From Minisyncoccota bacterium (GTDB lineage: Bacteria > Patescibacteriota > Minisyncoccia > Phycocordibacterales > UBA9973): a stretch of DNA of 64,000 bases. Made by a program: the position numbers and the translations under genes. The stretch lies in the NCBI GenBank assembly GCA_041648595.1, contig JBAZOQ010000001.1, positions 82,242 through 146,241 on the forward strand, read 5' to 3'. The notes beneath the pieces are model-generated. The model made no database searches. It had not been told where the DNA came from and saw only the letters and a list, made by a program, of their open reading frames with translations. Of the stretch, positions 21,328 through 49,820 are shown in pieces; positions within the stretch are counted from its first letter, which is position 1; each line of letters opens with the position of its first letter.

Positions 21328-21466
21328 CATATATTTTATAAAACACGACATATTTGCAAGCTTACAAATTGCTATGCTCGTCGTTCAAGAAAAATATAGT
21401 CGGAATACCTCCTTATTTTTCTAAACTCCTGTGCAATGTTTTCTAAAACACATGCTACCGGAATTT
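21317..21466. repeat. Structured intergenic element bounded by 15-bp perfect inverted repeats AAATTCCGGTAGCAT / ATGCTACCGGAATTT, with nested inner inverted repeats
   Basis: The left arm overlaps the TAG stop of the FtsQ-like gene. The right arm ends 6 nt before the dus ATG. The inner pair is cgacatattt / aaatatagtcg. Confidence 0.55.
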
Positions 21467-22479: not shown

Positions 22480-22572
22480 AAAGGAATTTCAAAAAATTTC
22501 TGAGCCTTCGCCCTCGGAGTCCGTGAGGACAGGGGACCCACGACTCTTGAAATTCTTTAAATTCCTTTTTAT
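22480..22572. repeat. Palindromic GC-core element family C, copy 1 (intergenic, dus-dnaX)
   Basis: The sequence is taaaaaggaatttcaaaaaatttctgagccttcgccctcggagtccgtgaggacaggggacccacgactcttgaaattctttaaattccttttta. The AT-rich arms are mutually complementary, and the conserved GC core is shared with copies at ~40901..41002 (reverse) and ~49711..49820. Confidence 0.75.
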
Positions 22573-22599
22573 TTTCTAAAAATCTGATATAGTTATTCT

Positions 22600-23667
22600 A
22601 TGCACGACTTAGCTTTATATCGTAAATATAGACCTCAGAGCTTTAAAGAAGTCTTAGGGCAAGACCATATTGTAAAGGTCTTAGAGAGTTCTGTGGAGAC
22701 AAATAAAGTTTCTCATGCTTATCTTTTTGTTGGTACTCGTGGTACTGGCAAAACGTCTGTGGCTAGAATTTTTGCTAAAGAAATTGGAGTCTCAGAAAAT
22801 GATCTTTATGAAATAGATGCTGCTTCAAATAGAGGTATTGAAGACATTAGAGAGCTTCGTGATGGAGTGCGTGTATTACCATTTGACTCAAAATACAAGG
22901 TTTATATCATAGATGAGGTGCATATGCTCTCTAAAGACGCTTGGGGGGCATTATTGAAGACATTAGAAGAGCCACCAAAGCATGTGATCTTCATTTTAGC
23001 TACCACAGAAGTCCATAAAGTTCCTGAAACTATTGTGTCTCGTTGTCAGGTTTTTACATTTAGAAAAGCTTCTGATTTAGTTTCTAAAAATATGATTTTA
23101 GAAGTTGCAAAAAAAGAAGGTTTTGAATTGGATAATAGCACAGCAGAATTGATAGCAATACTTGGAGATGGATCTTTCCGTGATGCATTAGGTACTCTTC
23201 AAAAAGTTTTAAATTTTTCTGTTGATTCAAAAGGTGAAAAAGTTAAAAAAATAAATAAAGAAGATGTGGAAAAAATTACAGGCGCACCAAAAACTATTTT
23301 AGTAAATGATTTTATTTCTTCTATTGCTTTAAAAGATTTAGAAAAAGGAATACTGACAATAAGAAAAGCTGCAGCAGAGAATTTAGATATGAAACTTTAT
23401 TTTAAACTTATTATACAAAAGTTTCGCATGGCAGTAATTTTAAAATATGCACCAAAATTAGAAAAAGAAATGGCAGGGGATTTAGGAGAAGAAGATTTAG
23501 AGTTTTTGAAAAAACTTGTTAAACAAGATACTGAAGGTTTACTTCGTTCTAAAGCATTATCTATACTTCTAGAAGCTTATAGCGATATAGATAGAGCATT
23601 TATATCAGAATTACCATTAGAACTTGCACTTATTAAGATTTTGGGGCAAGATAAAGAAGTTAAATAA
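22600..23667 (+). CDS. dnaX: DNA polymerase III subunit gamma/tau (short form)
   Basis: The clamp-loader AAA+ signatures YRPQSF..VLGQDHIVKVL...HAYLFVGTRGTGKTSVARIFAKEI and the sensor motifs are present. Confidence 0.8.
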   Translation: MHDLALYRKYRPQSFKEVLGQDHIVKVLESSVETNKVSHAYLFVGTRGTGKTSVARIFAKEIGVSENDLYEIDAASNRGIEDIRELRDGVRVLPFDSKYKVYIIDEVHMLSKDAWGALLKTLEEPPKHVIFILATTEVHKVPETIVSRCQVFTFRKASDLVSKNMILEVAKKEGFELDNSTAELIAILGDGSFRDALGTLQKVLNFSVDSKGEKVKKINKEDVEKITGAPKTILVNDFISSIALKDLEKGILTIRKAAAENLDMKLYFKLIIQKFRMAVILKYAPKLEKEMAGDLGEEDLEFLKKLVKQDTEGLLRSKALSILLEAYSDIDRAFISELPLELALIKILGQDKEVK

Positions 23668-23671
23668 ATAT

Positions 23672-23742
23672 TGGGAGATCGTCTAACGGCAGGACAGCGG
23701 CCTTTGAAGCCGTGAATTATGGTTCGAATCCATATCTCCCAG
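23672..23742 (+). tRNA. tRNA-Gln (anticodon TTG)
   Basis: TGGGAGA TC GTCT AACGGCA GGAC A GCGGC CTTTGAA GCCGT GAAT TATGG TTCGAAT CCATA TCTCCCA G folds as a cloverleaf. The acceptor and T stems are perfect, the T-loop is TTCGAAT, and the anticodon loop is CU-UUG-AA. Confidence 0.8.
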
Positions 23743-23820
23743 CTAGCTAAAATAACCTTATTTTATAAAGTTATTTTTATTTACCTTAAGTTAAGTTAGA
23801 ATTTTTGATATAATAAAAAC

Positions 23821-24304
23821 ATGCGAAAAGAAATTCAATTAAAAACTAAAGACGAACATATTATTTATGGAACATTTGATTCAGTTAAAAAAAGTAAAAC
23901 CCTATTAATTTTTGTTCATGGATTTACTGGGCATAGAAATGAACACCATAATAGTTTTATGGGATCCTGCAGATAAAATGAAGGATTTAAAAGAAAAAAA
24001 TGCTGAATATAATGCTGATCTAGATAAATATATTTTTAATTCAAGATTAAATATAATTGTTTCTAAAGAATTGGTTGATGAGTGGCAAACTATAGATGTT
24101 GGTAAATTAGCTGAGGAAATAGATATTCCATGTAAATTTATTTTTGCTGGAAATTATAATAAATTAGAAGTATGGAAACCATTTTTAAATAGAATAAAGG
24201 TAGCTAATGAATTTGCAATAGTTGAAGGAGCTAGTCATGTATTTATTGAAGAGGGAGTTGAGCAAAAACTATTTGAAGAAACCCTTAATTATATAAAAGC
24301 ATAA
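23821..24304 (+). pseudogene. Disrupted alpha/beta-hydrolase gene: an N-terminal fragment (frame 1, MRKEIQLKTKDEHIIYGTFDSVKKSKTLLIFVHGFTGHRNEH..., stop ~23973) plus a C-terminal fragment in another frame (ORF 23912..24304 with the catalytic-His region VEGASHVF)
   Basis: The two fragments sit in different frames. The nucleophile-elbow (GxSxG) region appears to be missing, and the combined length (~180 aa) is short for the fold. Confidence 0.55.
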
Positions 24305-24352
24305 TAAAAATATAAATTATACTTTTATTTTGTGTTAAAATCGTGGATTTTT

Positions 24353-24550
24353 TTATCTCTTTACCTTCACTAATTTTTTTGAGTTTTTTGATTTAACAAC
24401 ACCATTCTTAAACCAAAATCCAATGGTGCTTTTTCCTATTTTAAGCTTTTCTGCTATTTGATTAAAACTCATTCCTTTTTTTCTAAGCATTACTGCTTTT
24501 TCTTTAATTTTTTTACTATATGAAATCATATAAATTAATAATATGCTCAT
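24353..24550 (-). CDS. small HTH protein (65 aa), homologous to the N-terminus of the 9902..10558 protein
   Basis: KAVMLRKKGMSFNQIAEKLKIGKSTIGFWFKN aligns with ELRKKGYSVKELHKMLGVSKGTISIWIQG. It may be a truncated remnant. Confidence 0.4.
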   Translation of the reverse strand: MSILLIYMISYSKKIKEKAVMLRKKGMSFNQIAEKLKIGKSTIGFWFKNGVVKSKNSKKLVKVKR

Positions 24551-24758
24551 TATCCTTGAAACACAAGTAATTTACCTTAAGGCCAGCACTTTTAATTATA
24601 TTTTGCTATAATAAAATTATGAAAAACATAAGAATCAGTTTTAAATTTTTATGGTATGATTTTTGGATAGGAGCTTTTTATGATAGAAACTCCAAAGTTT
24701 TATATGTTTGTCCATTACCAATGTGTGTTATAAAAATTTGGAAAAGTGAATAAAATTT

Positions 24759-25274
24759 ATGAATAAAATTCTAGAATTTGGAATAAAAAGAGAAAATGAA
24801 GAGCGACGAGATGGTGGATGTGCTGTTGTTTTTGATACTGAAAGTCAAAGATATGCAGTATATAGAAACCTAAAAAATAAAATATTAGGACTTTATGGTG
24901 GTGGATTTGATGATGGAGAAAATGAAGAACAAGGAGTATTAAGGGAAGTCATTGAAGAAAGTGGTTTATATGATTTTTTATATACAGAAAAAATAGATAA
25001 AGTATTAACTCATTATTTTAATTTTAATAAAAAGAAAAATAGAGTAGCGATGGCTACATGCTTTTTGGTAATCCTGAAATCTAAGAGTTTAAAACCAACT
25101 AATTTTGATGAACATGAAGAATTTGAATTAGAATGGATGACACCTAAAGACTTATTTTTTATTTGGGAAACCAATAGTAAAGATAAAAATTATGACCACT
25201 GGATTTATTTTCTTAAAAAAGCAGTAAATCGTGCTATTGAACTTAGTTATGATACAACTAGTCAGAAAATGTAA
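24759..25274 (+). CDS. NUDIX hydrolase
   Basis: The Nudix box GGGFDDGENEEQGVLREVIEESGL (Gx5Ex7REUxEExGU) is present. Confidence 0.75.
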   Translation: MNKILEFGIKRENEERRDGGCAVVFDTESQRYAVYRNLKNKILGLYGGGFDDGENEEQGVLREVIEESGLYDFLYTEKIDKVLTHYFNFNKKKNRVAMATCFLVILKSKSLKPTNFDEHEEFELEWMTPKDLFFIWETNSKDKNYDHWIYFLKKAVNRAIELSYDTTSQKM

Positions 25275-25363
25275 TATTTGACAGAGTAGTTTTAGAATGC
25301 TATTATGTTTTAATAACTAAAGGTTCTTTTTAATTAAAAAAATATCTTGAAAGGGTTCAAAAA

Positions 25364-25894
25364 ATGGAATTCAAAAAAACTGACCTAATTATTCTTAGTG
25401 AAAAGAAATTGCATGTTAGTTCTTCAGCAATAATACTTTTTGAAAAAATAACAAAATTTCATAGAGAAAAATCAAATGGTTTGTGGATAAAAATTAGGGA
25501 CGTAAAAAATCAATCAAATCGTTTAAATTTACCTATTTTTACCCCCTCAGAAGAAGTTTTGTATATTTGCGACCAAGAAGCTACAGATTTGTTAATTTTG
25601 AAAGATACTGTTTCTAATTTTAATTTTTTTGATAATTATCATTATGAAAAAAGTATAAATGCTGGATCTATTTTATTTAACAAAAATGAAACCCGGTTTC
25701 AATCAACAGTTTCTGGTCTTTTAAGAAAAGAAGATAATATTTTTCTTGCAATGTGTTTAATACCAACAGTATTAAACATAGAAATAGACTTTGTCGTAAA
25801 TCATATTCAGAAAAGAGATAAAGATGCTCTTCCTGAATGTTTTTTTAAAGAAAATCATTATCTTAACAAAATTTTAAAAGTTTTTAAAATATAA
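25364..25894 (+). CDS. hypothetical protein
   Basis: A 176-aa ORF with a hairpin terminator immediately downstream (25908..25937). No motif recognised. Confidence 0.45.
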   Translation: MEFKKTDLIILSEKKLHVSSSAIILFEKITKFHREKSNGLWIKIRDVKNQSNRLNLPIFTPSEEVLYICDQEATDLLILKDTVSNFNFFDNYHYEKSINAGSILFNKNETRFQSTVSGLLRKEDNIFLAMCLIPTVLNIEIDFVVNHIQKRDKDALPECFFKENHYLNKILKVFKI

Positions 25895-25969
25895 TTTTAA
25901 AAACAAAAAGCCTTGAGAAATCAAGGCTTTTTTTATTTTTGATAATATATTCTACTTTTTCACTTAATA

Positions 25970-26821
25970 ATGTATAATTATATAATGACTTTTAAAAAAT
26001 TTTATATTATTATATTTTTAGTATTTTCTATATTACCAACACAAAAAATATTTGCTCAAACTCCTAATACTGGTTTTGTTTCAGAAAATATTTGGTATTC
26101 AAAAGATCCACTAATGGAAGGGGATAAGGTTCAGATATATACATTTGTTTTTAATCCTGACAGTAGAGAATTATCTGGTACTGTGATTTTCTTTGATAAA
26201 ACTGTTTTATTAGGTAAAAAAGAATTTGTTATACCTCCAAAAGGTGCTAAAGATGTATTTATTAATTGGACTACAACTGCAGGTGACCATATTATTTTTG
26301 CTAAAATAGAAAATGCTAAATTTTTACTTTCAAATGGAAAATATGAAGAAGTATATATAGCCCTAAACGAAACAGAAAAAAACTCTCAAACTATATCTAA
26401 AAAAATAACCTCTGCAGATACAAATACTGACATAAATCCTATTTCCAATATAAGTAATACTGTATCTGATTCTATTTCAAATATTAAAAATATAATAGAA
26501 GAAAAAACACCAAATTTTATAACTCAACCAATACTAGCTACTACAAATAAATTAGAAGAATTAAGAAAAAATATAAACACAACAGGACAACTTAAAAAAG
26601 AAGAAATAAAAAAAGAAATAGAAAACTTAAATTCTACTAAAATAAACAAAGAAGGAAATTCAAAAACAACAAGAAATCCGTTATTAAAACCATTTAAATA
26701 TGTAGAATTATTCTTTGTTTCCACCTTATCTCTAATCCTAAACAATAAAATTCTATTTTATGGAATTTTACTTATTTTAATTTTCTTTATTTTACGTTAT
26801 ATTTGGAAGAAAATTTTCTAA
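25970..26821 (+). CDS. hypothetical secreted/membrane-anchored protein (N-terminal signal peptide, Ser/Asn-rich linker, coiled region, C-terminal TM)
   Basis: The assignment rests on hydrophobic N- and C-termini. It is positioned upstream of the PBP2 gene. Confidence 0.45.
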   Translation: MYNYIMTFKKFYIIIFLVFSILPTQKIFAQTPNTGFVSENIWYSKDPLMEGDKVQIYTFVFNPDSRELSGTVIFFDKTVLLGKKEFVIPPKGAKDVFINWTTTAGDHIIFAKIENAKFLLSNGKYEEVYIALNETEKNSQTISKKITSADTNTDINPISNISNTVSDSISNIKNIIEEKTPNFITQPILATTNKLEELRKNINTTGQLKKEEIKKEIENLNSTKINKEGNSKTTRNPLLKPFKYVELFFVSTLSLILNNKILFYGILLILIFFILRYIWKKIF

Positions 26822-26874
26822 CTTTAAATAAAAAATAAATTTGTATTTTAAATTTAAGTGTGTAGAATAAGCTT

Positions 26875-27138
26875 ATGATACAAAGAATCGTAGCGTCCTT
26901 AATACTTCTTTTTTCTATTCTATATATGCCTTTTTATTTGTCTATAATATTGGCATTAATAGGTATAATATATTTCTCATTTTATTGGGAAAGTGTCTTT
27001 CTATTTTTTATTTCAGATTTAATTTTTGGTATAAAAGAAGAAAAACTTTTAAATATCTATTTCATATCTTTTTTAATATCTTTCATAGTTTTAATATCTA
27101 TAGAATTATTAAAAAGAAAAATTAGAATTTCAAAATGA
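26875..27138 (+). CDS. small integral membrane protein (2-3 TM), overlaps the PBP2 start by 4 nt
   Basis: An 87-aa hydrophobic ORF translationally coupled to the PBP2 gene. It could be a minimal MreD-like protein, but this is unproven. Confidence 0.45.
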   Translation: MIQRIVASLILLFSILYMPFYLSIILALIGIIYFSFYWESVFLFFISDLIFGIKEEKLLNIYFISFLISFIVLISIELLKRKIRISK

Positions 27139-28829
27139 TACGAAGAATATTAAGAAAACAAAAAATTAAAAATGCTAATTTTTTTGTAGAACCAGATGAG
27201 ATTTTTCTTGATTCTAAAAATTTACAAAATTTTGATCGTCAACAATTCGAAGGTCGCATAGAAAAACCAATTTCCAAAAAAACTATATTTTTTGTTGGAT
27301 TTTTCTTCTTATTATTTTTAGTAATTTTTTCAACCAGACTTGGATACCTTCAAATAGAAAAAGGGTATGCATATTTAAATAGAAGTCAAAATAATATTTT
27401 AGAAAAACAAATTATTTTTAGTGATAGAGGTATCATTTATGATAGAAATAAAGTAGAGCTTGCTTGGAATAAAAAAAGAGATGATTTACCTACGACAATA
27501 CGTTCATATATATCCCCTGGGTTTTCTCATGTTTTAGGATATGTAAGTTACCCAACACAAGATAAATCAGGAAATTATTGGCAAAGTGAATTTATAGGTA
27601 AAGATGGACTTGAAAAACAATATAATCAAGAATTAAGGGGTGTAAATGGTTCAAAAATAGTAGAGATAGATGCTCGCAAAATAATTCATTCAGAAAATAT
27701 AGTAAATGCTCCTTCACGTGGTGTTGATTTAATTACAACAATAGATTCACGTATTCAATCAGAATTATACACTCTTATTAAGAATCTATCAGCTAGTAAT
27801 TCTTTTTCAGGTGGAGCAGGAGTATTAATTAATATAAAAAATGGAGAAGTTTTAACATCAGTAAGTTTTCCAGAATATGATTCCGAAGTTTTATCTTTGG
27901 GAAAAGATACAGAAAAAATTCAAAACTATTTAAAAGATAAAAGAAAAGTATTTTTAGATAGGACAATTTCAGGACTTTATGTACCGGGTTCTATAGTAAA
28001 ACCATTTTTTGCTATTGGAGCATTAACAGAAGGAATAATTGATCCATACAAAAAAATATTATCAACTGGTTCAATTTCAATACCAAATCCATATTTAAAA
28101 GATCAAGAAACTGTTTTTAAAGACTGGAAAGCACATGGATGGGTAGATATGCGACAAGCATTAGCTGTTTCAAGTGACGTATATTTTTATGAAATTGGTG
28201 GAGGTTTTCAAGGCCAAAAAGGTTTAGGAATTGTTAATATTGAAAAATATGCTTCACTTTTTGGTATTGGACAAAAAACTGGTATTGACCTACCAGATGA
28301 AAAAAGTGGTGTTATACCAAGTCCAGAATGGAAAATAAAAAACTTTAATGGAGAAGTCTGGCGTATTGGAGACACTTATCACACCGTCATAGGACAATAT
28401 GGCTTTCAGGTAACTCCAATGGAAATGGCACGTGCCATATCTGCACTAGCAAACTACGGAACACTTATTACTCCACATTATATTTTAGGAGACAAAGAGA
28501 AAGAAAATATTATTTCAAAAATAAATTTTAAAAAAGAAGATTTTAACACAATCCATGAAGGAATGAGGGAAAGTGTTTTAGTTGGAACTTCTGTTTTACT
28601 AAATGTGCCATATATAAAAGTTGCTTCTAAGACTGGAACAGCGCAACTTGGTATAAATAAAAATAAAGTTAATTCTTGGATTGTTGGTTTCTTTCCATAT
28701 GAAAATCCACAATATGCATTCACTATAATGATGGAAGCGGGACCTTCCTCAAACGGAGTCGGAGCATCATCTATTATGCGCCAACTACTAGATTGGATGT
28801 CTATAAATACCCCAGAATATTTTGAATAA
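27135..28829 (+). CDS. mrdA: penicillin-binding protein 2 (peptidoglycan D,D-transpeptidase)
   Basis: An N-terminal TM is followed by the SxxK (SIVKPF), SxN (SSDVYF) and KTG (KTGTA) motifs. Confidence 0.85.
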   Translation: MIRRILRKQKIKNANFFVEPDEIFLDSKNLQNFDRQQFEGRIEKPISKKTIFFVGFFFLLFLVIFSTRLGYLQIEKGYAYLNRSQNNILEKQIIFSDRGIIYDRNKVELAWNKKRDDLPTTIRSYISPGFSHVLGYVSYPTQDKSGNYWQSEFIGKDGLEKQYNQELRGVNGSKIVEIDARKIIHSENIVNAPSRGVDLITTIDSRIQSELYTLIKNLSASNSFSGGAGVLINIKNGEVLTSVSFPEYDSEVLSLGKDTEKIQNYLKDKRKVFLDRTISGLYVPGSIVKPFFAIGALTEGIIDPYKKILSTGSISIPNPYLKDQETVFKDWKAHGWVDMRQALAVSSDVYFYEIGGGFQGQKGLGIVNIEKYASLFGIGQKTGIDLPDEKSGVIPSPEWKIKNFNGEVWRIGDTYHTVIGQYGFQVTPMEMARAISALANYGTLITPHYILGDKEKENIISKINFKKEDFNTIHEGMRESVLVGTSVLLNVPYIKVASKTGTAQLGINKNKVNSWIVGFFPYENPQYAFTIMMEAGPSSNGVGASSIMRQLLDWMSINTPEYFE

Positions 28830-28880
28830 AAAGTATTATTTTGTTTTTTTTAATAAATACAGTATAATATTAAGATGAAT

Positions 28881-28979
28881 CCCGTTAGAAGTTAACTATG
28901 CGGGATTGATATTTTAATGATAATCAAGTTATATAATATTATTTATAATTAATGTAATATTAGTATAACTTCTAACGGG
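28881..28979. mobile_element. MITE-like element copy B with the same CCCGTTAGAAG / CTTCTAACGGG terminal inverted repeats, flanked by the 5-bp direct repeat ATGAA (28875-28879 and 28980-28984)
   Basis: The structure is ATGAA t cccgttagaagtta actatgcggga ... taacttctaacggg ATGAA. The right-hand ATG is the start of ORF 28980..29201. It shares the internal tat(a)gcggga motif with copy A. Confidence 0.6.
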
Positions 28980-39403: not shown

Positions 39404-39459
39404 ATAGAGATTATAACAGATTTTCTAAAACTGTGTATAACCAAAGAAAGACCACCATT

Positions 39460-40350: not shown

Positions 40351-40357
40351 TTTTTAA

Positions 40358-40891
40358 TTATTCTTCTAAATTTTGTGCCATAGATTCAATGGAACTATTT
40401 ATTAATTCATAATCTGGTAATTCTTCTACAGATTTTACGCCCATAAATGAAAGAAGTTCAAATGTAGGTTTATAAATATAACGTCTACTATCTTCAGAAT
40501 CAATATTTTTTTCTATCAAACCCCTAATAGATAACGCCCTTAATGTAAAACTGGAATTTACTCCTCGTATGTAGTCAATAAGAGATCTGCCTACTCCTTT
40601 TTTGTAAAGAATAATTGATAATGTTTCTAAACTTGCTTTTGAAAGTTCTTTATTTAATTCCTCTTTTTGTAATCTCTCTATAATATCTGAAAGTTCTGGC
40701 GCTGTTCCTAAAGTTATCTCATTCTCTTTTTCTTGTAACACTATTCCTCTACTTTTTAAATTTTCTTTTAATTTCTCTAATGCTTCATTTATTTCAATCT
40801 GTTCCACACCCAAAAACTCTGCGAGCTTTTTTCGAGACATTGGTTCTCCTTTAAAGAAAAGTATTGCTTCTATTTTTTGTTCTAAATTCAT
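40358..40891 (-). CDS. scpB: segregation and condensation protein B
   Basis: Tandem winged-helix ScpB pattern (EAILFFKGEPMS...). Confidence 0.8.
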   Translation of the reverse strand: MNLEQKIEAILFFKGEPMSRKKLAEFLGVEQIEINEALEKLKENLKSRGIVLQEKENEITLGTAPELSDIIERLQKEELNKELSKASLETLSIILYKKGVGRSLIDYIRGVNSSFTLRALSIRGLIEKNIDSEDSRRYIYKPTFELLSFMGVKSVEELPDYELINSSIESMAQNLEE

Positions 40892-40900
40892 AATTTGTTT

Positions 40901-41002
40901 AGACTCCCTGAAATTAAAAAATTTTAAGAGTCGTGGGTTCCCTGTCCTTATGACTCCGAGGGCGAAGGCTCAGAAATTTTTTGAATTTCTGGGAGTCTAT
41001 TA
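40901..41002. repeat. Palindromic GC-core element family C, copy 2 (reverse orientation); supplies the last 14 codons and stop of scpA
   Basis: The sequence agactccctgaaattaaaaaattttaagagtcgtgggttccctgtccttatgactccgagggcgaaggctcagaaattttttgaatttctgggagtct has complementary arms. The scpA C-terminus PEIQKISEPSPSES* is read from the element. Confidence 0.75.
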
Positions 41003-41742: not shown

Positions 41743-41766
41743 CTTTATATTATAACACGCTTTAAT

Positions 41767-42459
41767 CTATTTTAGTGTGATACTTTGCAAAATGATAGGT
41801 TCAATAGGTCTGTCGGAACTATCTGTTTTTACAGAATTTATTTTTTCTGCAACATCAAGTCCAACTGTAATTTTTGCAAAGACAGTATGTTTTGTATCTA
41901 AAAAATTATTTGTAGCTGCATTAATAAAAAATTGGCTACCATTTGTATTTGGTCCAGAATTTGCCATTGCTATAGTGCCTATATCATTCTTGTTACTAGA
42001 AGTTAATTCATCATCAAACTTATATTCTGGTCCTCCTGTACCCCAAAGATTTTCTTTTGTATCATCTTTTGAAAGTGGATCACCACCTTGACTCATAAAA
42101 CCTTTTATAATTCGATGAAATTTTGTACCATCATAAAAACCACTTTCTGCAAGTTTAATAAAATTTTCTACAGTCTTGGGTGTGTTTGGATTAAATTCTA
42201 TTGTAATATCTCCTTTGTTTGTTTTTAATGTAACTGTCATAATCTTTTTATTTTCTTCCTTATTTATAATATTTTGATCTTGTCCATTAGTAATAGGTTC
42301 TTGTGTTGCAGTTTCTGGTGTATTTACGGCAGATTCAACTGGTAAACTAGCTTCTTTTGTGTCAGAAACTTTTAATACATCACCTATATTTGAAACAGAC
42401 AACCAATATCCCAAACCAAGTACTACTAGTAGTAAAAACACAATTCCATATTTATTCAT
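41767..42459 (-). CDS. peptidyl-prolyl cis-trans isomerase, cyclophilin type, membrane-anchored/secreted
   Basis: The cyclophilin signature FHRIIKGFMSQGGDP follows an N-terminal TM/signal. Confidence 0.85.
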   Translation of the reverse strand: MNKYGIVFLLLVVLGLGYWLSVSNIGDVLKVSDTKEASLPVESAVNTPETATQEPITNGQDQNIINKEENKKIMTVTLKTNKGDITIEFNPNTPKTVENFIKLAESGFYDGTKFHRIIKGFMSQGGDPLSKDDTKENLWGTGGPEYKFDDELTSSNKNDIGTIAMANSGPNTNGSQFFINAATNNFLDTKHTVFAKITVGLDVAEKINSVKTDSSDRPIEPIILQSITLK

Positions 42460-42485
42460 ACTTATATATTTATATTTTAAAATTT

Positions 42486-42518
42486 CAGCCTGAGGCTGAT
42501 CCGCCTTTGGCGGAAAAT
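42486..42518. repeat. GC-rich double hairpin, family D copy 2 (intergenic)
   Basis: The sequence cagcctgaggctg atccgcctttggcggaaaa shares gatccgccYttggcggaaaa with the priA-internal copy at 2329..2360. Confidence 0.7.
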
Positions 42519-42519
42519 T

Positions 42520-42543
42520 TATAATATTTTGATTATATCATAA
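42520..42543 (+). repeat. 24-bp direct repeat tataatattttgattatatcataa, copy 1 (copy 2 at 43219..43242); the pair brackets gene 42569..43201
   Basis: The match is exact over 24 bp, with ~700 bp between copies. Confidence 0.7.
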
Positions 42544-42568
42544 ACATCATAATTGATTAAATTTACTA

Positions 42569-43201
42569 CTAATTTTTAATTTCTTTAAAGAATTTATTCC
42601 ATCGCAATCTTTCATCTGCCTCTGTTAATTGTTGCACGGTAGTACTAACAATTATAAATATAATCAATAATAAAACAGAACTTATCTCAAAACCGACAGA
42701 ACCTGAAAAAAGAATAAAAAACATCATAATCCACAATGGTAAGTATCTGAAAAAACCAGTATTTCCACCCATATCATCTTTTTCTTCATATTCATAAAGT
42801 TCTTCACGTTGTTTATAGAATATAATTTCTTTATATATAGATAATCCTATAAATAACAAAAACAGCAAAACACCTTGATTAAATTGATTTTCAAAAAAAA
42901 TAAAAAGATATTTTCTTAATACAAATGCATGAATTCCTAAAAAAATGATAGTCCAAATATTAAATAAAAATATAACAAAAAATGAATATTTAAATTTTAT
43001 CATAAATATATTTGTAATAGAGAAAAATAACAATAGCTGTATAAAAAAAACAGAAATTGCGGCAGGAAAAGTCCAATATTCCAATATACCGAAGATTAAA
43101 GATGAAAAAAAATAAAAAATATCAACATAAATTGTTTTACTATTTGGTATTTCTTTAACTAAAGGTAATAGAAAAATTTTTATTTTTTCGGACATATCCA
43201 T
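42569..43201 (-). CDS. hypothetical polytopic membrane protein
   Basis: A 210-aa protein with 5-6 hydrophobic helices, flanked by the 24-bp direct repeats. Confidence 0.5.
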   Translation of the reverse strand: MDMSEKIKIFLLPLVKEIPNSKTIYVDIFYFFSSLIFGILEYWTFPAAISVFFIQLLLFFSITNIFMIKFKYSFFVIFLFNIWTIIFLGIHAFVLRKYLFIFFENQFNQGVLLFLLFIGLSIYKEIIFYKQREELYEYEEKDDMGGNTGFFRYLPLWIMMFFILFSGSVGFEISSVLLLIIFIIVSTTVQQLTEADERLRWNKFFKEIKN

Positions 43202-43243
43202 ATATTTATATTAATTTCTATAATATTTTGATTATATCATAAT

Positions 43244-43618
43244 TTAAAACCAGACCCCTATCGTAACTTTAATATTTAAATTATCATAAAGATTCTCTTC
43301 AAAACGAATTTGTTTTTTAAGAGGCAAAATATATGTCGGAGAATACCTATCTGGAAAAATGGAAGTCACCCATTCACTTTTCTTTACCTTAGCTTTAACA
43401 TAAATAGCACCCCAACCACGTCGAAGCTTCCCTTTTTGCATTTCTTTAATTTCAGCAGATATTTTTTCTGATACCCTAGCAAACCGCCAAGCACTATCAA
43501 CATTTTCTCTATCAGTTCCATATGCCCAGACAATCACTTTACTTTTAAATTTAAAAGTTCTTCGTATTTTTCCAACCTTAATTTCTTTTTTTATTTTAAT
43601 TTTTAAATTCTTTGACAT
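43244..43618 (-). CDS. hypothetical protein
   Basis: A 124-aa basic protein with no motif recognised. Confidence 0.4.
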   Translation of the reverse strand: MSKNLKIKIKKEIKVGKIRRTFKFKSKVIVWAYGTDRENVDSAWRFARVSEKISAEIKEMQKGKLRRGWGAIYVKAKVKKSEWVTSIFPDRYSPTYILPLKKQIRFEENLYDNLNIKVTIGVWF

Positions 43619-43701
43619 CTACTTATTAAATTGACTAACCCAAAATATTTTTTTATCTTTTAACCACTTTAATATTAGTTTTCCATATTTTTATAATATC
43701 T

Positions 43702-43735
43702 AACATCCTTACAAACTCCAGTTTGTAAGGATGTT
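43702..43735. terminator. 15-bp-stem hairpin aacatccttacaaac tcca gtttgtaaggatgtt, downstream of the ArsR-family gene
   Basis: It has a perfect stem and shares the core ctacaaactccagtttgtag with the hairpin at ~44037..44070. Confidence 0.55.
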
Positions 43736-43736
43736 A

Positions 43737-44036
43737 TTATGTTTGTTTAAATAATTTTAAAAAATTAACAAAGATTTTACCATATGGAGATAAAGTATGT
43801 TCAACAAATTTACCTTTATATTTTTTATTAATCAATCCTGCTTGGTGAAGTCTTCGAGTATGCTCTCCTATTGTTTTCGGATTTGCATCAAGCGTTTCAA
43901 TAATACCATCAAGAGTTATTCCATCTTCCTTGGCTACAAGAAGTAATATTTCAATGCGATGATGGTTTGCCATACCTTTGAGATGTCGCTCCATTTGTTT
44001 AGCTGTTTTTATTTTACCCATATTTATATTATACAC
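43737..44036 (-). CDS. ArsR/SmtB-family winged-helix transcriptional regulator; GTG start
   Basis: HHRIEILLLVAKEDGITLDGIIETL...HTRRLHQAGLI is the ArsR HTH signature. Confidence 0.75.
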   Translation of the reverse strand: MYNINMGKIKTAKQMERHLKGMANHHRIEILLLVAKEDGITLDGIIETLDANPKTIGEHTRRLHQAGLINKKYKGKFVEHTLSPYGKIFVNFLKLFKQT

Positions 44037-44070
44037 AATACCCCTACAAACTCCAGTTTGTAGGGGTATT
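44037..44070. terminator. Second hairpin of the same family, aatacccc(c)tacaaac tcca gtttgtaggggtatt, between the SWIB gene and the ArsR gene
   Basis: The loop and inner stem are the same as 43702..43735, while the outer stem carries compensatory changes. Confidence 0.55.
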
Positions 44071-44122
44071 ATTTAAATTAGAAGCAAAAATTATTTCTTT
44101 GCTTTTTTGGTTTAACTTAAAA

Positions 44123-44419
44123 TTATGAAAGATGCTTGGAAACAAGCTTGGTCATTTCAAACATATTGACTACACTTTTGCCACCAAACACTTTCTTGAG
44201 TGCAGCATCAGCTACGATATTACGCTTGTTCTTTGGGTCTTGAAGATTATTCTTCTTGATATATACCCACAATACCTTTACCACCTCAGACCTAGGCATA
44301 GGACCCTTGCCTACTACTTCTGCCAATTCTGTACTTATCTTCATTGGCTTCATAAATGCGGAAACTTTTTTTTCTGCCATATAATTTCTTGTTGTTAATC
44401 CCGGCACCTTAATTTTCAT
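44123..44419 (-). CDS. SWIB/MDM2-domain protein
   Basis: KPMKISTELAEVVGKGPMPRSEVVKVLWVYIKKNNLQDPKNKRNIVADAALKKVFGGKSVVNMFEMTKLVSKHL matches the SWIB domain consensus over its whole length. Confidence 0.75.
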   Translation of the reverse strand: MKIKVPGLTTRNYMAEKKVSAFMKPMKISTELAEVVGKGPMPRSEVVKVLWVYIKKNNLQDPKNKRNIVADAALKKVFGGKSVVNMFEMTKLVSKHLS

Positions 44420-44487
44420 TTTGGGTCGAGACTCCGACTTTACGTCGGGGTTAATAATATCTATATATTATAGCATAATTTTACTTC

Positions 44488-44652
44488 TTATGCCCTTTAG
44501 AATAACCTGCTACATTTAAAGCAATGGCTATTATTTGTTTATGACTTCTAATCTTACCATTCGCCCCACGAGCCTTTCCTGTCTTTTTATTATCAGCCTC
44601 TAATTCTTTTATATTTTCACCTATATTCTTTTTTCCTTTCAATAATGGCATA
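44488..44652 (-). CDS. hypothetical small basic protein (~54 aa; not in the ORF track; coordinates approximate)
   Basis: Hand translation gives MPLLKGKKNIGENIKELEADNKKTGKARGANGKIRSHKQIIAIALNVAGYSKGHK. Confidence 0.25.
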
Positions 44653-44727
44653 TATTTAATTTTTTATTAATAGCACAATGATGGTTTTTAGGTAAAGATA
44701 ATTATAAAATATACATATTTCAATAAT

Positions 44728-44910
44728 TTAGTTTTGTGTTATTTCTTTAAAAAACTCTTCCCCATACAAATTTTTTATTTCAGTATTTATTTTATCTATT
44801 AAACTTAAAAATAATTTTTCAAAAACTTCTCTTGCTTTTTTATAATCTTCTTCATTGAGTTTTATTTTTGTCCCTATTGGATGGTTTTTTGCAAATTTAG
44901 TATTTCTCAT
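44728..44910 (-). CDS. hypothetical small protein
   Basis: A 60-aa ORF downstream of, and co-oriented with, the methyltransferase and the 159-aa gene. Confidence 0.3.
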   Translation of the reverse strand: MRNTKFAKNHPIGTKIKLNEEDYKKAREVFEKLFLSLIDKINTEIKNLYGEEFFKEITQN

Positions 44911-45023
44911 TTGTTTTAAATATCTTTCATCAATCTTTGAAAAAGAATGAACAATAACATGTCTTAGTGCCTGATATTTTATTATATTATCTTTTATTTC
45001 ATCATCAATTTTTAAATTTATTT

Positions 45024-45503
45024 TTAAATATTCTTCAAAAAACGAAGTGTGCTTTGTAAATCTTGAAAATTAAATTCTACACCTAATGATTTCGTTATTA
45101 CTTCTCCTAGCGTTGAAAATTTATAATTTAATACACTAACTTCAAAAACAATTTTTTTATCCTCTTTTGGCCACTGAATAATATCATGATATTCGTTTAC
45201 TATTGTGATTACTAAATCAGTTAGTGATGATTCTAAATTTGAAACTAGAAGAACATTAGCTTGATTGTAAATAACTTCATATTTATCTTTTAAACTTGGA
45301 TGATTTTTTATTTTTTCAATTTCACCAATAACTCTTTCAAGCTTTTCTTTGTAAAGAATAAAACCAGGAATTTTTTCATTCTCTTTTTCTAGTGATTTCA
45401 AAAGAACAAGTAATATTTTACTCACATCTGATCCTATTCGAGTGATTTGATCAATGGACTCTATATTTTTTCTATATTTCTCTAAAATTAATCCTGGCGA
45501 CAT
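45024..45503 (-). CDS. hypothetical protein directly downstream of the methyltransferase gene (possible partner or specificity component)
   Basis: A 159-aa, mostly helical protein with no PD-(D/E)xK or HEPN motif that I can confirm. Confidence 0.4.
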   Translation of the reverse strand: MSPGLILEKYRKNIESIDQITRIGSDVSKILLVLLKSLEKENEKIPGFILYKEKLERVIGEIEKIKNHPSLKDKYEVIYNQANVLLVSNLESSLTDLVITIVNEYHDIIQWPKEDKKIVFEVSVLNYKFSTLGEVITKSLGVEFNFQDLQSTLRFLKNI

Positions 45504-45520
45504 TTTTTTATAAAATTATT

Positions 45521-47578
45521 TTAATAATTGATATTTAAATAATTTCGGCTGGATTTCTGTTCGGCAGTTGTAAAATAAATATCTCGCTCATACCAATTTT
45601 TTTGCGGATAAAGTTTTGCGGCAAAAAGAGGGAGTTTTTCGATAAAATTATCAGAACGAAGATAAAAACCACGAATATTGTATCTTGTAGCTCGCAATAG
45701 ATGTATGTCATGTTGTGTGATGGCAAAACCTTTTGGTACTAAATATCCAATAATATTTTTATTATAAAAAGATTTACCATCAACTTTCCTACCAGTTATT
45801 TGAGATCCGTCATCTTCACAATATATATTTGTAATAATGTCATCTTTAAATGTTCGACGATCATAATATGACTCAAGTGTACTATGAGCTTTTTTTATTG
45901 TGATTTTTTCAAGCGAAACAATTTTTTCTTCTTGCTCTTGCATATTTTGAGTATAAATATCAAATGCTTTTAAGGTTAATTCTTCAACACTTTGATTTTC
46001 ATTTTGCCAAGCAATACAACTAATTGAGCTTTCACTGGCATGAAAATATTTACGATTAAAAAGATATCCATCTATAAACTTTCTATTACCAAGACCAAGT
46101 GATTTCCAGTACTTAATCGGCGAAAATAGCACATAACAATCATTCGGTTTTGTTAAATAATATTTCCATCCACTCCAATTAAATTGATTCGAAATGTCAC
46201 GAGCAGTTGATACATTAGAGTTTGCCAGATTTTTTAAATCAAGTTTCATATTCTCAAACACAAAAGTCCCTTTGCTGGTTTTATTTGTTAAATTATCAGT
46301 ATTCGCAGCACTACTGTCTCTATAAGGTGGATTCTCAAATAAAATGATATTGGTCTTTTTATCTTTTACAAAATTATTTAGCTCGGTGATAGATTTGATA
46401 TACTCCTTACTTATTTTAATTTTTGTTTTTCCGAGTATAAATTGTTCACTCAAAGCATCGCCACCATTTACAAGAGGCTCACGCCCGGTAACCTCCACCG
46501 GTGGTGGAATAATCTTTTTTACCTTAAGACCAAACCGTCCATTCAAAACAATCCATTCTTTTAATTCATAAGTGTTAACGATGGCATGCGATAATTCATT
46601 ATTAAAAATATAATCATGAATATTTATTTTTGTTTTATATTTTTCTAGTTTGCCAATAGTTATTTGATTAAAATCACTAAATTTAATAAGGGAAAGAACA
46701 TTTGCTTTATCTTTTAAATATTTATCAACAAATTCATCTGAAAGATATTTTCGCAATTCGCTGATAGTAATGTCATTTACTAGTTTATCAGTTAAAAATT
46801 CCAAAAGATTGCCGGTGCCGGCGCAACGATCAAGAATAATATAATCATTGCCTTTGGGAATCTAAGCAATAGCTTTGCGAACAAGTTCAGTGGCTTTCTT
46901 GCAATAAGCAGGCGGTGTATAAAAAGCGCCTAGCTCCTTGCGATGCATACGATCGTTTAGAAGATCCATTATGTATTTGAAATCTTTTTCCTTGCCTTTC
47001 CATAGCTGAATAAATTTTTTAAAATGTTTTGGCTCTCGAAATTCTTCAAAAAGTTTGATTTTTGTTGCTCTGGGATTTTCATCATAAAAACGATTGGACC
47101 ATCCAACAACGTCATATATGTCAATTGTTACTTTAGTAAAATTGTTTGTTTGAAGCAACTCAGTGATACATTGAATGCCGACAGGTTTATCATATTTAAT
47201 AACTTCTGGTTTTAATGTTGTACTAAACTCATCATTACTCTTGCTGGCAGCACCGATAAAAGGCGGACAGTTTATATAATCACGGGCAAAATCTTGAGAA
47301 TTAAACAGATAGGCAATTTCTTGATTTAGATCCACTAATAAGATGTTTGCTGGAATGCTAATACCCTTGACGCGTATATGGTTAAGATATTTTAGTGTTT
47401 GAAAAAGTACAGCATTGATATTATTGATATTAGGCTTAAATTCAAATATATTTCCGTTATAGATACCGTCGGTGTTATTACTGAGTTCGGTATCCGTAAT
47501 TCCAAATTTTTTAAAAAATTCAAATTGGCCCTCGCGCTCAGATTGAAAGTTATTCCCAGATTTGAATGTTTTTTTCAT
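45521..47578 (-). pseudogene. N6-adenine DNA methyltransferase (gamma-class; motif X GAFYTPP, motif I ILDRCAGTGNLL, motif IV NPPY, C-terminal TRD) interrupted by a single in-frame TAG at 46862..46864
   Basis: Track ORFs 46862..47578 and 45521..46804 are in the same frame. The M of the downstream ORF is really a TTG Leu codon. Translation through the TAG gives ...VRKAIA*IPKGNDYIILDRCAGTGNLLEFLTDKL..., restoring the conserved AdoMet motif I between motifs X and IV. Confidence 0.7.
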
Positions 47579-47628
47579 AATTTTATTTCTCCAACTTTTT
47601 ATATAAAGTTTAGTTTTATTATTAAAAT

Positions 47629-48390
47629 TTACAATCCACTTAATTGACTGTTTAATTCACGTTCAAGTGTTAATCCAAAATCTTTGATAATCCCCTGTTG
47701 GTCAATTGGCAAAAAAGTTCCAAGTTCATTTTTAAAATTTATTTGTTTTGCCTCGGCAATAATAAAATCTTTCTTCATAGCGAGTTTTTTCTTTTGTTCA
47801 GAAGAAAGTCTCCCTTGGCGCATTATAATATAAAGATCATAAAAATCACGTGGTTTTTTTCGTTCAATTAATGCACCAAAAATTTTTTCATCAATCAACT
47901 CATTTTGTGGTAAATGATTAATTGTATAAGTAGGCACAAAATTATTTGAAATACTATCTAGTTCACCTTTTATAATTACATCACTTCGTGTTGAAATATT
48001 TATCTCTACACCAATCGGTTGATAATCAAACATTTGAAATGTAGCAATTCCTAAATACCCACCACTTGTTGTTCCAAATCGGTCACCAAGCTTGACTTTT
48101 ATTCCCATTTTTTCTATTTCAGAAAGTGTTTTTAAAAATAATTCTTCAATAAATAGTTTTACTTCATGTGGAGCAACACCAAAAAGAGAAAAATCTAAAT
48201 CTTCAGAAAATCGTGGACTACCATAAACAATACGAAGTGCCGTTCCACCTTTAAAAAGAAGTTTCTCAGAATCTGGCAATTTATACAATTCTCCTAAAAA
48301 AATATGTTGAAAATATTCTCGAATTACGTTCGGAAATATTCCCATTTGATACTGCCTACTTAATTTTTCCAGTGTTTCTATAGATATCAT
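47629..48390 (-). CDS. AbiEii-family nucleotidyltransferase toxin (type IV TA / abortive infection)
   Basis: FKGGTALRIVYGSPRFSEDLDFSL is the hallmark DUF1814/AbiEii motif. Its start overlaps the upstream gene's stop (ATGA). Confidence 0.8.
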   Translation of the reverse strand: MISIETLEKLSRQYQMGIFPNVIREYFQHIFLGELYKLPDSEKLLFKGGTALRIVYGSPRFSEDLDFSLFGVAPHEVKLFIEELFLKTLSEIEKMGIKVKLGDRFGTTSGGYLGIATFQMFDYQPIGVEINISTRSDVIIKGELDSISNNFVPTYTINHLPQNELIDEKIFGALIERKKPRDFYDLYIIMRQGRLSSEQKKKLAMKKDFIIAEAKQINFKNELGTFLPIDQQGIIKDFGLTLERELNSQLSGL

Positions 48391-48986
48391 TGTAATGTTG
48401 TCTTTATTATACCTGAAAGTTTTTTATTACCAAACAACGAAGCATATTTCTTTGCTCTTGTGGAATTAATTTTTTCTTTATTAAAACGAGAAATCGGTTT
48501 TTGTCCACTCATTAATCGCAAATAATTTGCGTCTACAAAAGCTTTTTCAGCATCTGCAATGTTAAAACCTAGACCTTTCTGTTTTTGAATTTCGTAACCA
48601 GTGTATGCAACTTTTTTTATTTTTCGATAAGAAAAAATTTTTCCTAATGCTTCAAACCTACGTGTAGCTTTAGTAGTTACTGAAGTAATTTCATAAACTG
48701 TCTCCGGAATAACTCCATAATATGAAAGTGCAAATTCAAGTGAAATATAAGATGGAGTATAAAGTTTACTAGCAACATAAACATCAGGTGGTAAGGTATC
48801 TGGAAAAACATAGAATCCTTTCTTAAGTTGTATTATAAATCCTTGTTTTTTATACCTGTGAAGTAGTGCAGATGCAGCAACAGCAGAAACTCCAAACAAA
48901 GAGCGAATATCACTTGCATTAAATATATATAACTTTTTACCCTTTATTTTTGAGGCAAAAAGTGTCTGATTCACCAATTTGACCAT
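48387..48986 (-). CDS. AbiEi-family antitoxin/transcriptional regulator (partner of AbiEii)
   Basis: It sits immediately upstream of, and translationally coupled to, the AbiEii gene. The size and N-terminal wHTH-like region fit AbiEi. Confidence 0.55.
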   Translation of the reverse strand: MVKLVNQTLFASKIKGKKLYIFNASDIRSLFGVSAVAASALLHRYKKQGFIIQLKKGFYVFPDTLPPDVYVASKLYTPSYISLEFALSYYGVIPETVYEITSVTTKATRRFEALGKIFSYRKIKKVAYTGYEIQKQKGLGFNIADAEKAFVDANYLRLMSGQKPISRFNKEKINSTRAKKYASLFGNKKLSGIIKTTLQ

Positions 48987-49022
48987 ATTGTCAATTTACC
49001 AAAACGTTATAAAATTGTCAAT
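48987..49022 (-). promoter_or_regulatory. Two direct ATTGACAAT repeats (coding-strand sense) 27 bp apart, abutting the AbiEi start codon; candidate autoregulatory operator/promoter
   Basis: The minus strand reads attgacaattttataacgttttggtaaattgacaat ATG. The upstream copy contains a TTGACA -35-like hexamer, with TAAATT 17 nt downstream. Confidence 0.3.
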
Positions 49023-49057
49023 AATCGACTGTGTATAAACCTATTTCATCCATTTTT

Positions 49058-49324
49058 TTAACCCTTCATGTGTATATAAATTTCACGTAAAGGCTCATTA
49101 TCTTTTTTAATACGGTAAATATCTACTATCTCACCATCTAAATCAAAATCTTTTTTTTCTAATTCTTTACTAAAAGTAGGATCAGACTCAAGTTTAGATT
49201 CAGCGGTTGTACCACATGAAAAAACATCAAAAGGTTCAATTTTTTCTTTTAATCCCGATTCTTTTATCTTTTTTTCTAAAGATTTTTTAGGATCAAAAGT
49301 ATTTTCTATCATTCCAGTTTTCAT
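49058..49324 (-). CDS. small hypothetical protein, paralog of 49336..49626 (shared C-terminal motif VDIYRIK...Y.H.K)
   Basis: The two ORFs are tandem and align with each other. Confidence 0.4.
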   Translation of the reverse strand: MKTGMIENTFDPKKSLEKKIKESGLKEKIEPFDVFSCGTTAESKLESDPTFSKELEKKDFDLDGEIVDIYRIKKDNEPLREIYIHMKG

Positions 49325-49335
49325 AAATTTATTTT

Positions 49336-49626
49336 TTATTCTTTTATGTGTAAATATAATTTATATTTATTGTCTCCGTCTGTGCACTCAATTTTAATGC
49401 GATATATATCTACATTTTTACCATCTAGAATAACATTTTCAGCAATAGGTTTTTCATTTATTGGTAGCTTTTTTTCTATCATAATATACTCATATGGCTC
49501 AATATTTTCAATCCTACCTTCATCTATTGCTTTTTGTATTTCTTTTTTATAAAACTGCGTACCCTTATATTCTTGCTCTATTTTTACTTTACTACTATTC
49601 ACCTTGTCTATTTTACTTTGTTCCAT
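49336..49626 (-). CDS. small hypothetical protein, paralog of 49058..49324
   Basis: See the call for 49058..49324. Confidence 0.4.
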   Translation of the reverse strand: MEQSKIDKVNSSKVKIEQEYKGTQFYKKEIQKAIDEGRIENIEPYEYIMIEKKLPINEKPIAENVILDGKNVDIYRIKIECTDGDNKYKLYLHIKE

Positions 49627-49710
49627 AATGTTTTTTATTTAACCCACATTTTAGTGGGTATGTTAATAATCTATAGGTTTATTATACCACTCAAATCAAA
49701 AACTAAGAAA

Positions 49711-49820
49711 TGCAAGAGCAAAAACAAGAAATCAAAAATTTCTGAGCCTTCGCCCTCGGAGTCCGTGAGGACAGGGAACCAACACGACTCTTAAAATTTT
49801 TATTTCTTGTTTTTGCTCTC
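49711..49820. repeat. Palindromic GC-core element family C, copy 3; the right arm overlaps the TAG stop of the ABC-F gene
   Basis: The sequence is gagcaaaaacaagaaatcaaaaatttctgagccttcgccctcggagtccgtgaggacagggaaccaacacgactcttaaaatttttatttcttgtttttgctc, with complementary AT-rich arms. Confidence 0.75.

Follow-up and report, generated by a model that had tools for sequence, protein, structure and literature searches.

Classical MITEs (small transposable elements with inverted repeats) have conserved termini, are flanked by a target-site duplication of fixed length and often have a related insertion sequence (IS) element. RNases process the mRNA hairpins of the Correia and ERIC types, and promoters can arise from Correia elements; REP, BIME and REPIN sequences, which RAYT transposases mobilise, are extragenic hairpin palindromes dispersed at gene 3′ ends, and they can stabilise the upstream mRNA. 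Bacteria of the candidate phyla radiation (CPR) have tiny, tightly packed genomes that are usually described as poor in mobile DNA. Rickettsia palindromic elements (RPEs), which are ~100-150 bp long and form several families, occur both in intergenic regions and in frame in housekeeping genes (PMC10969869). The mobile GC clusters of yeast mitochondria, among them GC42, for which a short AG target duplication has been reported (PMC4478555), and the hairpin elements of sponge and fungal mitochondria are GC-rich, hairpin-forming islands in extremely AT-rich genomes (PMC4478555; PMC2800124). Here we describe a previously undescribed family of ~100-nt palindromic repeats that is specific to Candidatus Nomurabacteria and related Paceibacteria and has three copies in a 64,000-nt stretch of a Minisyncoccota contig (JBAZOQ010000001.1; the whole stretch is called the window below). 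Full-text literature searches found no description of such an element for Nomurabacteria, Patescibacteria or CPR bacteria, only analogues, namely RPEs and mitochondrial GC clusters. We interpret the family as probably a selfish, MITE-like or RPE-like palindromic element that is or was mobile.

The three window copies share the 25-mer TTTCTGAGCCTTCGCCCTCGGAGTC, which is present exactly at 22497-22521(+), 40952-40976(-) and 49739-49763(+) and at no further place in the window; no match arose in 100 dinucleotide-preserving shuffles of the window, and a chance origin of the three copies is not expected. When the copies are aligned, the block from AAAAATTTCTGAG to CACGACTCTT is invariant save for the apical loop (CCGTGA or CATAA), one A/G position and a C/AAC indel. 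The flanks of this block are unrelated from copy to copy and complementary within each copy, giving arms of 28-32 nt with 84-89% complementarity, and each copy folds into a single long hairpin on either strand (z-scores -4.5 to -6.7). All three have a GC-rich core of 44-47 nt at the tip of a long AT-rich hairpin, in a window with a GC content of ~29%. The exact 25-mer, the alignment and the folding together bear out what a preliminary description had read from the letters, namely three palindromic copies with a common GC core whose arms differ between copies yet are self-complementary within each. Copy 1 lies between dus and dnaX, as that description had it, and its left arm holds the final two dus codons and the TAA stop (22477-22479). 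The right arm of copy 2 contains GGGAG, 12 nt 5′ of the scpB ATG. Copy 3 is antisense to the minus-strand genes around it and was thought to overlap the stop codon of the ABC-F gene; its arm ends at 49819 and the stop occupies 49820-49822, so the two abut without overlap.

To describe the spread of the family, one genome per species, all of them metagenome-assembled, was scanned for the exact 20-mer GAGCCTTCGCCCTCGGAGTC that forms the 5′ part of the core (fetched loci are labelled L and a number). Among the 69 loci recovered, 65 are on AT-rich contigs of ~27 assemblies, mostly labelled Candidatus Nomurabacteria, Paceibacterota or Patescibacteria, and every one of the 65 has the complete hairpin architecture; the remaining four are chance matches in high-GC genomes. 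Assemblies hold several copies each, up to 9 in MFTY01 and 6 in JAHFNS01, and flank clustering resolves them into ~39 distinct genomic sites; many copies are orthologous, so that per-copy counts are not counts of independent events. A hidden Markov model of the core added only three near-exact copies within the fetched flanks, and all core matches were complete short elements. The core thus recurs at ~39 sites in ~27 related assemblies, which supports the dispersed family postulated from the window. A scan of viral contigs gave one match, a chance occurrence on a high-GC contig lacking the element architecture, and phage carriage is unsupported. At Rfam gathering thresholds the whole window yielded only three tRNAs and no family match to the element, the copy 3 region in E-value mode gave only generic hairpin (miRNA-type) matches far under the thresholds, and a protein search with the doubled element-encoded peptide (44-aa query) found nothing. 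Copies of the element also stand beside Nomurabacteria-like genes on AT-rich contigs of assemblies labelled Burkholderiales, Woesearchaeota or Saccharibacteria (L045, L064 and L070 (JAMPXW01), L058 (CAYHUV01) and L007/L010/L033/L049/L054); these labels are probably binning or labelling errors.

The scpA-scpB junction was read in 80 scpB loci from metagenomes, an unbiased sample that includes a diverged GAAAC...GTTTC subfamily and decayed copies such as L076, and ~85 ScpA orthologs were compared. At empty junctions (L071, L083, L101, L138 and L148-150) the scpA stop overlaps the scpB start as ATGA, and by comparison of these sequences this overlap is the ancestral state of the junction. The element occupies the junction in the window and in ~20 other loci, and because at least three or four arm types are found there, the data suggest that the junction was filled by more than one insertion event. 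Native ScpA proteins end in ...FEDIIIKKQ followed by 1-5 residues. In the window, by contrast with this native ending, the protein terminates in ...NRLPEIQKISEPSPSES, and copy 2 provides the last ~16 codons and the stop codon, with RLPEIQK coming from its left arm and ISEPSPSES and the stop from its core; the Pfam ScpA match ends at residue 248 of 264, ahead of this tail. ScpA reads into the element, ending in ...KI(S/F)E(P/T)xPSES, in 9-10 of the ~85 orthologs, all of which have the element at the junction; at the remaining filled junctions the scpA stop codon lies 5′ of the element, and the ~75 of 85 orthologs without the tail end 11-16 residues earlier. The tail is found only where the element has inserted, which on this ortholog comparison makes the terminal KISEPSPSES of ScpA element-derived and not ancestral coding sequence.

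The preliminary description had already attributed the scpA C-terminus and stop codon to the element and had set an alignment of ScpA orthologs beforehand as the refuting test; the tail did not prove to be broadly shared, and the attribution stands. The opposite explanation, that the shared sequence is ancestral and codes for a peptide conserved at the C-terminus of ScpA and of further proteins, could appeal to the several orthologs that end in ...EPSPSES, but the absence of this ending from ~75 of 85 orthologs, the Pfam domain that ends ahead of the tail, and the intergenic position of the same DNA at most of the ~39 sites and in two of the three window copies leave it next to impossible. One sense reading frame is open across the entire core. 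Two open reading frames (ORFs) of the window had been called spurious products of the element that carry KISEPSPSES; this is correct for 49534..49794, but the peptide is absent from 22299..22541, which lies on the other strand and gives an antisense reading of the element (VGPLSSRTPRAKAQKFF...).

A second protein is altered in its interior. In L007, L035 and L050 the element stands in frame in the linker of LeuRS (leuS), and in the 802-aa leuS ORF of L035 the insert is flanked on either side by Pfam LeuRS domains. This linker, which runs from ...RFLERVW to LHKTIKKV, has a baseline length of 14-21 aa, and several lineages hold different 15-25-aa inserts in it (loci L007, L035, L050 and L061; homologs P0001, P0003, P0007 and P0013); like the scpA-scpB junction, it is a hot spot for insertions. 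A search for LeuRS homologs yielded C-terminal fragments for the most part, and close relatives offered no clean pair of a filled and an empty site. We judge it likely that the LeuRS insert, too, is a by-product of insertion and not ancestral coding sequence.

Filled and empty orthologous sites were found at the scpA-scpB junction, at 60448-60539 when the window is compared with L046/L024, and at the 3′ end of the ABC-F gene, where the site is filled in the window and L018 and empty in L038. No hairpin was present at the orthologous empty sites examined (the scpA-scpB ATGA overlaps, window 60448-60539 and the L038 ABC-F 3′ end). Because orthologous sites differ in the presence or absence of the element and the empty ones are without a hairpin, we take the copies to have arisen by insertion. 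The same observation largely refutes the model of the preliminary description, in which a short GC-rich mobile core invades the loops of existing terminator hairpins that then serve as its arms. That model accommodates site-specific arms around a shared core, and it can point to ordinary terminator-like hairpins with 4-nt loops in the window, to a small coreless hairpin at the scpA-scpB junction of L133, and to the opposite core orientations in homologous arms described below, which could stem from independent invasions. However, the arms are AT-rich and near-constant in length (22-29 bp), and 16-20 nt of them are shared within subfamilies between unrelated sites. Nor do they look like terminators: the window copies lack the short GC-rich stem followed by a T-run of an intrinsic terminator, a terminator scan found no site in copies 2 and 3 and, in copy 1, a single weak match that is internal and away from the hairpin base, and promoter and terminator consensus scans returned nothing above shuffle expectation. 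The LeuRS copies, moreover, would need a pre-existing 14-bp palindrome in a coding linker. Taken with the hairpin-free empty sites, these points make invasion of terminators highly improbable.

The arms instead appear to owe part of their sequence to their surroundings. At several sites the outer left arm consists of the upstream gene's native 3′ end, and the inverted complement of that end forms the outer right arm; this holds for dus, where AGAAAATAA is paired with TTATTTTCT, for the L121/L108 scpA group, and for two elements of other families in the window (61921-62049 and 21319-21463). Because the outer arms copy the upstream gene end in inverted form, these cases suggest that the stem may have been extended or corrected with the upstream flank as template.

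From the apex outward, the element is built of a GC-rich core (GAGCCTTCGCCCTCGGAGTC, loop, GGACAGGGRACC(C/AA)CACGACTC; 44-47 nt), AT-rich inner arms and site-specific outer arm ends, and the consensus of 69 aligned copies is one irregular hairpin. In this alignment 95.4% of cells are paired versus 88.8% in shuffles, and 114 cells are changed on both sides versus 30 expected, a number reached by none of 500 shuffles. The covariation check proposed in the preliminary description, run on copies across genomes, therefore gave a divided answer: the signal is strong in the stem, all of it located in the arm helix, whereas the core is almost invariant and its three short helices, which are invariant in the 69 copies, yield little covariation signal. 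Compensatory core changes occur in the diverged subfamily (GAGCC/GACTC to GAAAC/GTTTC and TCG/CGA to ACG/CGT) and in L069 (GAG/CTC to GCG/CGC). Inner arms come in compensating versions (AAAAATTT/AAATTTTT, AAAGATTT/AAATCTTT and AAGAATTT/AAATTCTT). Inverted arms are present in every copy, with a nearly constant length of 22-29 nt; only the inner ~16-20 nt are shared, by members of a subfamily across unrelated sites, and the outermost 9-13 bp differ at every site, yet are mutually complementary. In 65 of 66 copies the mRNA-sense strand folds less well than its complement, and arm mismatches comprise 90 A.C versus 42 G.T; we ascribe the A.C excess chiefly to a few fixed positions at which mismatches were inherited, and do not take it as a sign of antisense RNA. 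The scpA-scpB junction copy of L081 (L081:3883-3977) has a 26-nt insertion nested in its core (TCGTAGCCTATGGGCGAGGCCCTCGG), which duplicates CCCTCGG.

Homologous arms and flanks enclose cores of opposite orientation in window copy 3 versus L018 and in L046 versus L024, and there are four such flipped orthologous pairs in all. In L084 versus L077 the arms are identical and the flanks near-identical, with 6-7 differences in the apical ~22 nt, and all of these apical variants recur in other copies of the family. At the scpA-scpB junction, core identity is 0.94-0.99, whereas the third codon positions of scpB reach 0.54 and the outer arm 0.53. The apical differences between L084 and L077 and a core identity far above that of its neighbours point to an exchange of cores between copies via the shared palindromic inner arms, and such an exchange would permit flipping.

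With GAGCC... on the top strand taken as the sense orientation, co-directional genes flank 40 copies in sense and 4 in antisense orientation, divergent genes flank 5 and convergent genes 4, and another 3 are inside an ORF (sense); per site the bias is ~25 sense to 4 antisense, as a rough estimate. In 46 of 61 copies the upstream stop codon falls -10 to +9 nt from the base of the stem or within the element itself, and the downstream ATG usually follows 0-15 nt past the stem; the hairpin therefore fills the whole spacer. This placement is what would be expected of a functional cis-acting mRNA structure under selection, acting either as an RNase III-type processing or stability site or as a clamp between stop and start by which translational coupling survives a ~100-nt spacer, the core being a protein-binding or folding module. 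The excess of sense over antisense copies between co-directional genes although flipping occurs, the coincidence of the stem base with the upstream stop region and the short distance to the next ATG all agree with such a function, as do the strong covariation of the stem, a core far more conserved than neighbouring synonymous sites, the coupled ATGA overlap of the ancestral scpA-scpB junction, and the fact that some orthologous copies have been kept in numerous species (seven copies at obg, for instance). Yet any insertion into a spacer of near-zero length gives the same stop/start geometry, close relatives differ in the presence or absence of the element, and unrelated core families interchange at the same junction. 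Copies also lie inside leuS, in divergent promoter regions and in antisense orientation; the core helices are nearly without covariation, with few compensatory changes (the GAAAC/GTTTC subfamily and L069); the transcribed strand folds worse than its complement in 65 of 66 copies; and no Rfam family matches. We consider a selected RNA function of this kind, the main rival to our interpretation, rather unlikely as the explanation for the family.

The sense bias might also reflect an outward sigma-70-like promoter (AGGACA, 16-18 nt, TAAAAT), selected in that orientation to drive downstream genes. Matches of this form point downstream in the sense orientation in copies 2 and 3 (40948-40921(-) and 49768-49797(+)), and most copies are immediately 5′ of a start codon on the same strand. 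Still, the matches cover only 9 of 12 positions, no better than shuffle expectation; copy 1 and seven others have TGAAAT, which loses the critical A at -10 position 2, and the G of TGAAAT pairs with a C of the left arm, so that the variation tracks the stem and not a promoter. The -35-like hexamer varies as well (GGGC, AGAC, GTCC), and some copies are inside ORFs. We regard the promoter as very unlikely.

The interpretation as a selfish, mobile or formerly mobile palindromic element is preferred over these alternatives, and insertion has presumably been confined to places where it is tolerated, namely junctions where genes overlap or lie close together, and protein linkers that permit it. The element would enter through a process of the replication or repair type in which a junction stretch of variable length is duplicated, and such a duplication would keep both the upstream stop and the downstream start codon. 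The arms would remain complementary through arm-to-arm correction (intrastrand template switching), through selection or through both, and the correction could lengthen the stem so that it reaches into the upstream gene's 3′ end. Cores would stay near-identical through gene conversion via the shared palindromic inner arms, the same process would flip them, and operons would tolerate only the sense orientation. Flanking direct repeats above the 99th percentile of controls were found by local alignment in 5 of 75 copies (0.75 expected); they are 11-26 bp long, with the stop/start junction within them, as in L011 (TAAATTTATGA, 12/12), L077 (14/15) and L023 (23/26).

Several points weigh against an origin by mobility of this kind. 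A fixed-window test of flanking 8-mers gave no global signal of target-site duplication, and the clear duplications are few and variable in length, unlike those of a classical DDE transposon. No transposase, other mobilising gene or autonomous partner was identified, although no systematic transposase search was made. Arm ends that are site-specific yet complementary are not explained by ordinary MITE insertion, and the arm-to-arm correction or upstream-templated extension that we propose for them draws on a handful of cases (dus, the L121 scpA group, window families C and D, and the LeuRS linker), while the near-constant arm length speaks against open-ended extension of the stem. The strong conservation of the 5′ half of the core and the sense bias could equally mean function, and the requirement for an exact 20-mer inflates the apparent uniformity of the core.

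A further idea, which we hold only tentatively and think improbable, is that the stem is a self-insulating insert, in that it base pairs the upstream stop region with the sequence before the next start. If this were true, the ~100-nt insert would be looped out in the mRNA and termination-reinitiation coupling across former ATGA overlaps would be kept; the GC-rich apex would act as a nucleus for folding or as a binding site for a host factor (RNase III, for example), its uniformity would come from exchange via the palindromic inner arms, and several unrelated core families would be using the same trick.

Table 1 Positions of the three element copies, the empty site and the neighbouring genes in the window.
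Feature	Position	Strand	Details
Copy 1, whole hairpin	22471-22577	+	Arms 22471-22498 and 22550-22577
Copy 1, core GAG...CTC	22502-22546	+	Apical loop CCGTGA
Copy 2, whole hairpin	40900-40999	-	Arms 40969-40999 and 40900-40930
Copy 2, core	40928-40971	-	Apical loop CATAA, in which TAA is the scpA stop codon
Copy 3, whole hairpin	49715-49819	+	Arms 49715-49746 and 49788-49819
Copy 3, core	49744-49790	+	Variants CCGTGA and CCAACACG
Empty site, divergent intergenic	60448-60539	.	Filled in L046, flipped in L024; no core or hairpin in the window
dus (Pfam Dus)	21472-22479	+	3′ end and stop paired inside the left arm of copy 1
dnaX (Pfam DNA_pol3_delta2 / gamma3)	22600-23667	+	3′ of copy 1
scpA ORF, 264 aa	40948-41742	-	Pfam SMC_ScpA over residues 28-248
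Element-derived 3′ end of scpA, RLPEIQKISEPSPSES and stop codon	40948-40999	-	
scpB	40358-40891	-	Start 9 nt beyond the right arm of copy 2; Pfam ScpB
ABC-F type ATPase, two ABC_tran domains	49820-51313	-	Stop codon adjoins copy 3

Other hairpins with GC-richer cores occur in the same genomes, and in other lineages the scpA-scpB junction holds the unrelated families E, F and G and heptamer-repeat palindromes. At window 30914-31016, between convergent genes, a perfect 23-bp AT-rich stem encloses a 57-nt GC-richer core (CGCACTCGAACCTGAATATGGTT...); this core defines family B, which is found twice in L003 and in frame in the LeuRS linker of L061. Window 61921-62049 (insert 61932-62062) is a 131-nt insertion with 35-nt arms and the core GGTAGGAGCGACGGCGACGGACAG, placed between an upstream stop and a recR-like gene whose true start is the ATG at 62063 (MNTIEK...); the ORF caller sets this start too early, at 62029. 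In the L046 counterpart of this junction the genes are parted only by TAA-A-ATG, and the outer right arm of the window insert, TTAAAACTTAT, repeats in inverted form the upstream coding end ATGAGTTTTAA. The ~130-nt repeat at window 21319-21463, 5′ of dus, belongs to family D (...GCTCGTCGTTCAAGAAAA...TTTTCTAAACTCCTGTGCAATG...), and its closing 12-bp stem, TTCCGGTAGCAT/ATGCTACCGGAA, takes in the upstream stop codon; the fetched loci contain ten copies of family D at various sites, for example at the ABC-F 3′ end in L048, and the element had no family match in Rfam E-value mode. Family E (core GTCCTGCGCCCTTCTTTGGGCGCATTTAGGGGAACAAAGTGGGACCCTCGGAC) has the same AT-rich inner arms and 24-26-bp site-specific stems and is found at the scpA-scpB junction and elsewhere (L080, L087, L093, L098-L100, L102 and L047). 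Further inserts at that junction are family F (L073, L090-92), a GC-rich palindrome (L085) and the heptamer-repeat palindromes (L074, L139).

Perfect GC-containing palindromes of 21-24 bp with loops of 0-4 nt, such as TTCTGCGGAAGCCTTGCTTCCGCG/CGCGGAAGCAAGGCTTCCGCAGAA, are present at window 2756-2801, 5541-5586 and 16871-16922 and may be ordinary terminators or another class of repeat. Between copies 2 and 3, window 47629-48986(-) encodes an AbiEi/AbiEii-type toxin-antitoxin pair (Pfam AbiEi_4, weak, and AbiEii).

The family and its at least four sister families of like build indicate that palindromes repeatedly colonise overlapping-gene junctions and protein linkers in these bacteria. They change protein ends (ScpA) and interiors (LeuRS), create spurious ORFs in annotation and, judging from the flips and core swaps, act as recombination substrates. 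Their architecture is the reverse of that of a typical MITE, which makes them a system for asking how palindromes are maintained and extended in vivo, and also whether an RNA hairpin keeps translational coupling across an insertion.

Among the described systems, REP and REPIN sequences have conserved arms and a variable loop, and the reverse is true here: the apex is conserved, the stem base is variable, and there is no GTAG-type 5′ motif in the element; a RAYT gene was not seen either, although no search was aimed at one. With prokaryotic MITEs (Correia of Neisseria, ERIC, RUP and BOX) the family shares small size, non-coding sequence, hairpin formation, inverted-repeat ends, many copies and co-transcription with neighbouring genes; at ~100 nt, with 3 copies in the 64-kb window and up to 9 exact-core copies per assembly, it is well within the dispersed elements of <300 bp that are so classified. 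It differs from them in that the termini are its least conserved part and flanking duplications are few and of 11-26 bp (5 of 75 copies) instead of a fixed length, and in that every core match is a complete short element and no parent IS was found, no systematic transposase search having been made. The GC-rich hairpin clusters of mitochondria are a close analogue. Variation concentrated in the loop, presence or absence at homologous sites and suggested non-allelic recombination are likewise described for them (PMC4478555; PMC2800124); those clusters, however, are organellar and eukaryotic, ~18-50 nt long and without long AT-rich stems, and have no known sequence relationship to the present family. 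RPEs are similar in being short dispersed palindromes of several families in a small AT-rich genome, with no transposase known for either, and in having in-frame copies that add peptide, here in leuS and in the ScpA tail (~10 orthologs). The likeness is one of mode of action, and we do not claim membership of an RPE family: the host phylum is another, with all true hits in Patescibacteria, and only the LeuRS linker and the 3′ ends of scpA, a minority of the ~39 sites, lie within genes. In further contrast to RPEs, it is the GC-rich apex that is conserved here and the stem base that is site-specific, with cores that flip and appear to have been exchanged.

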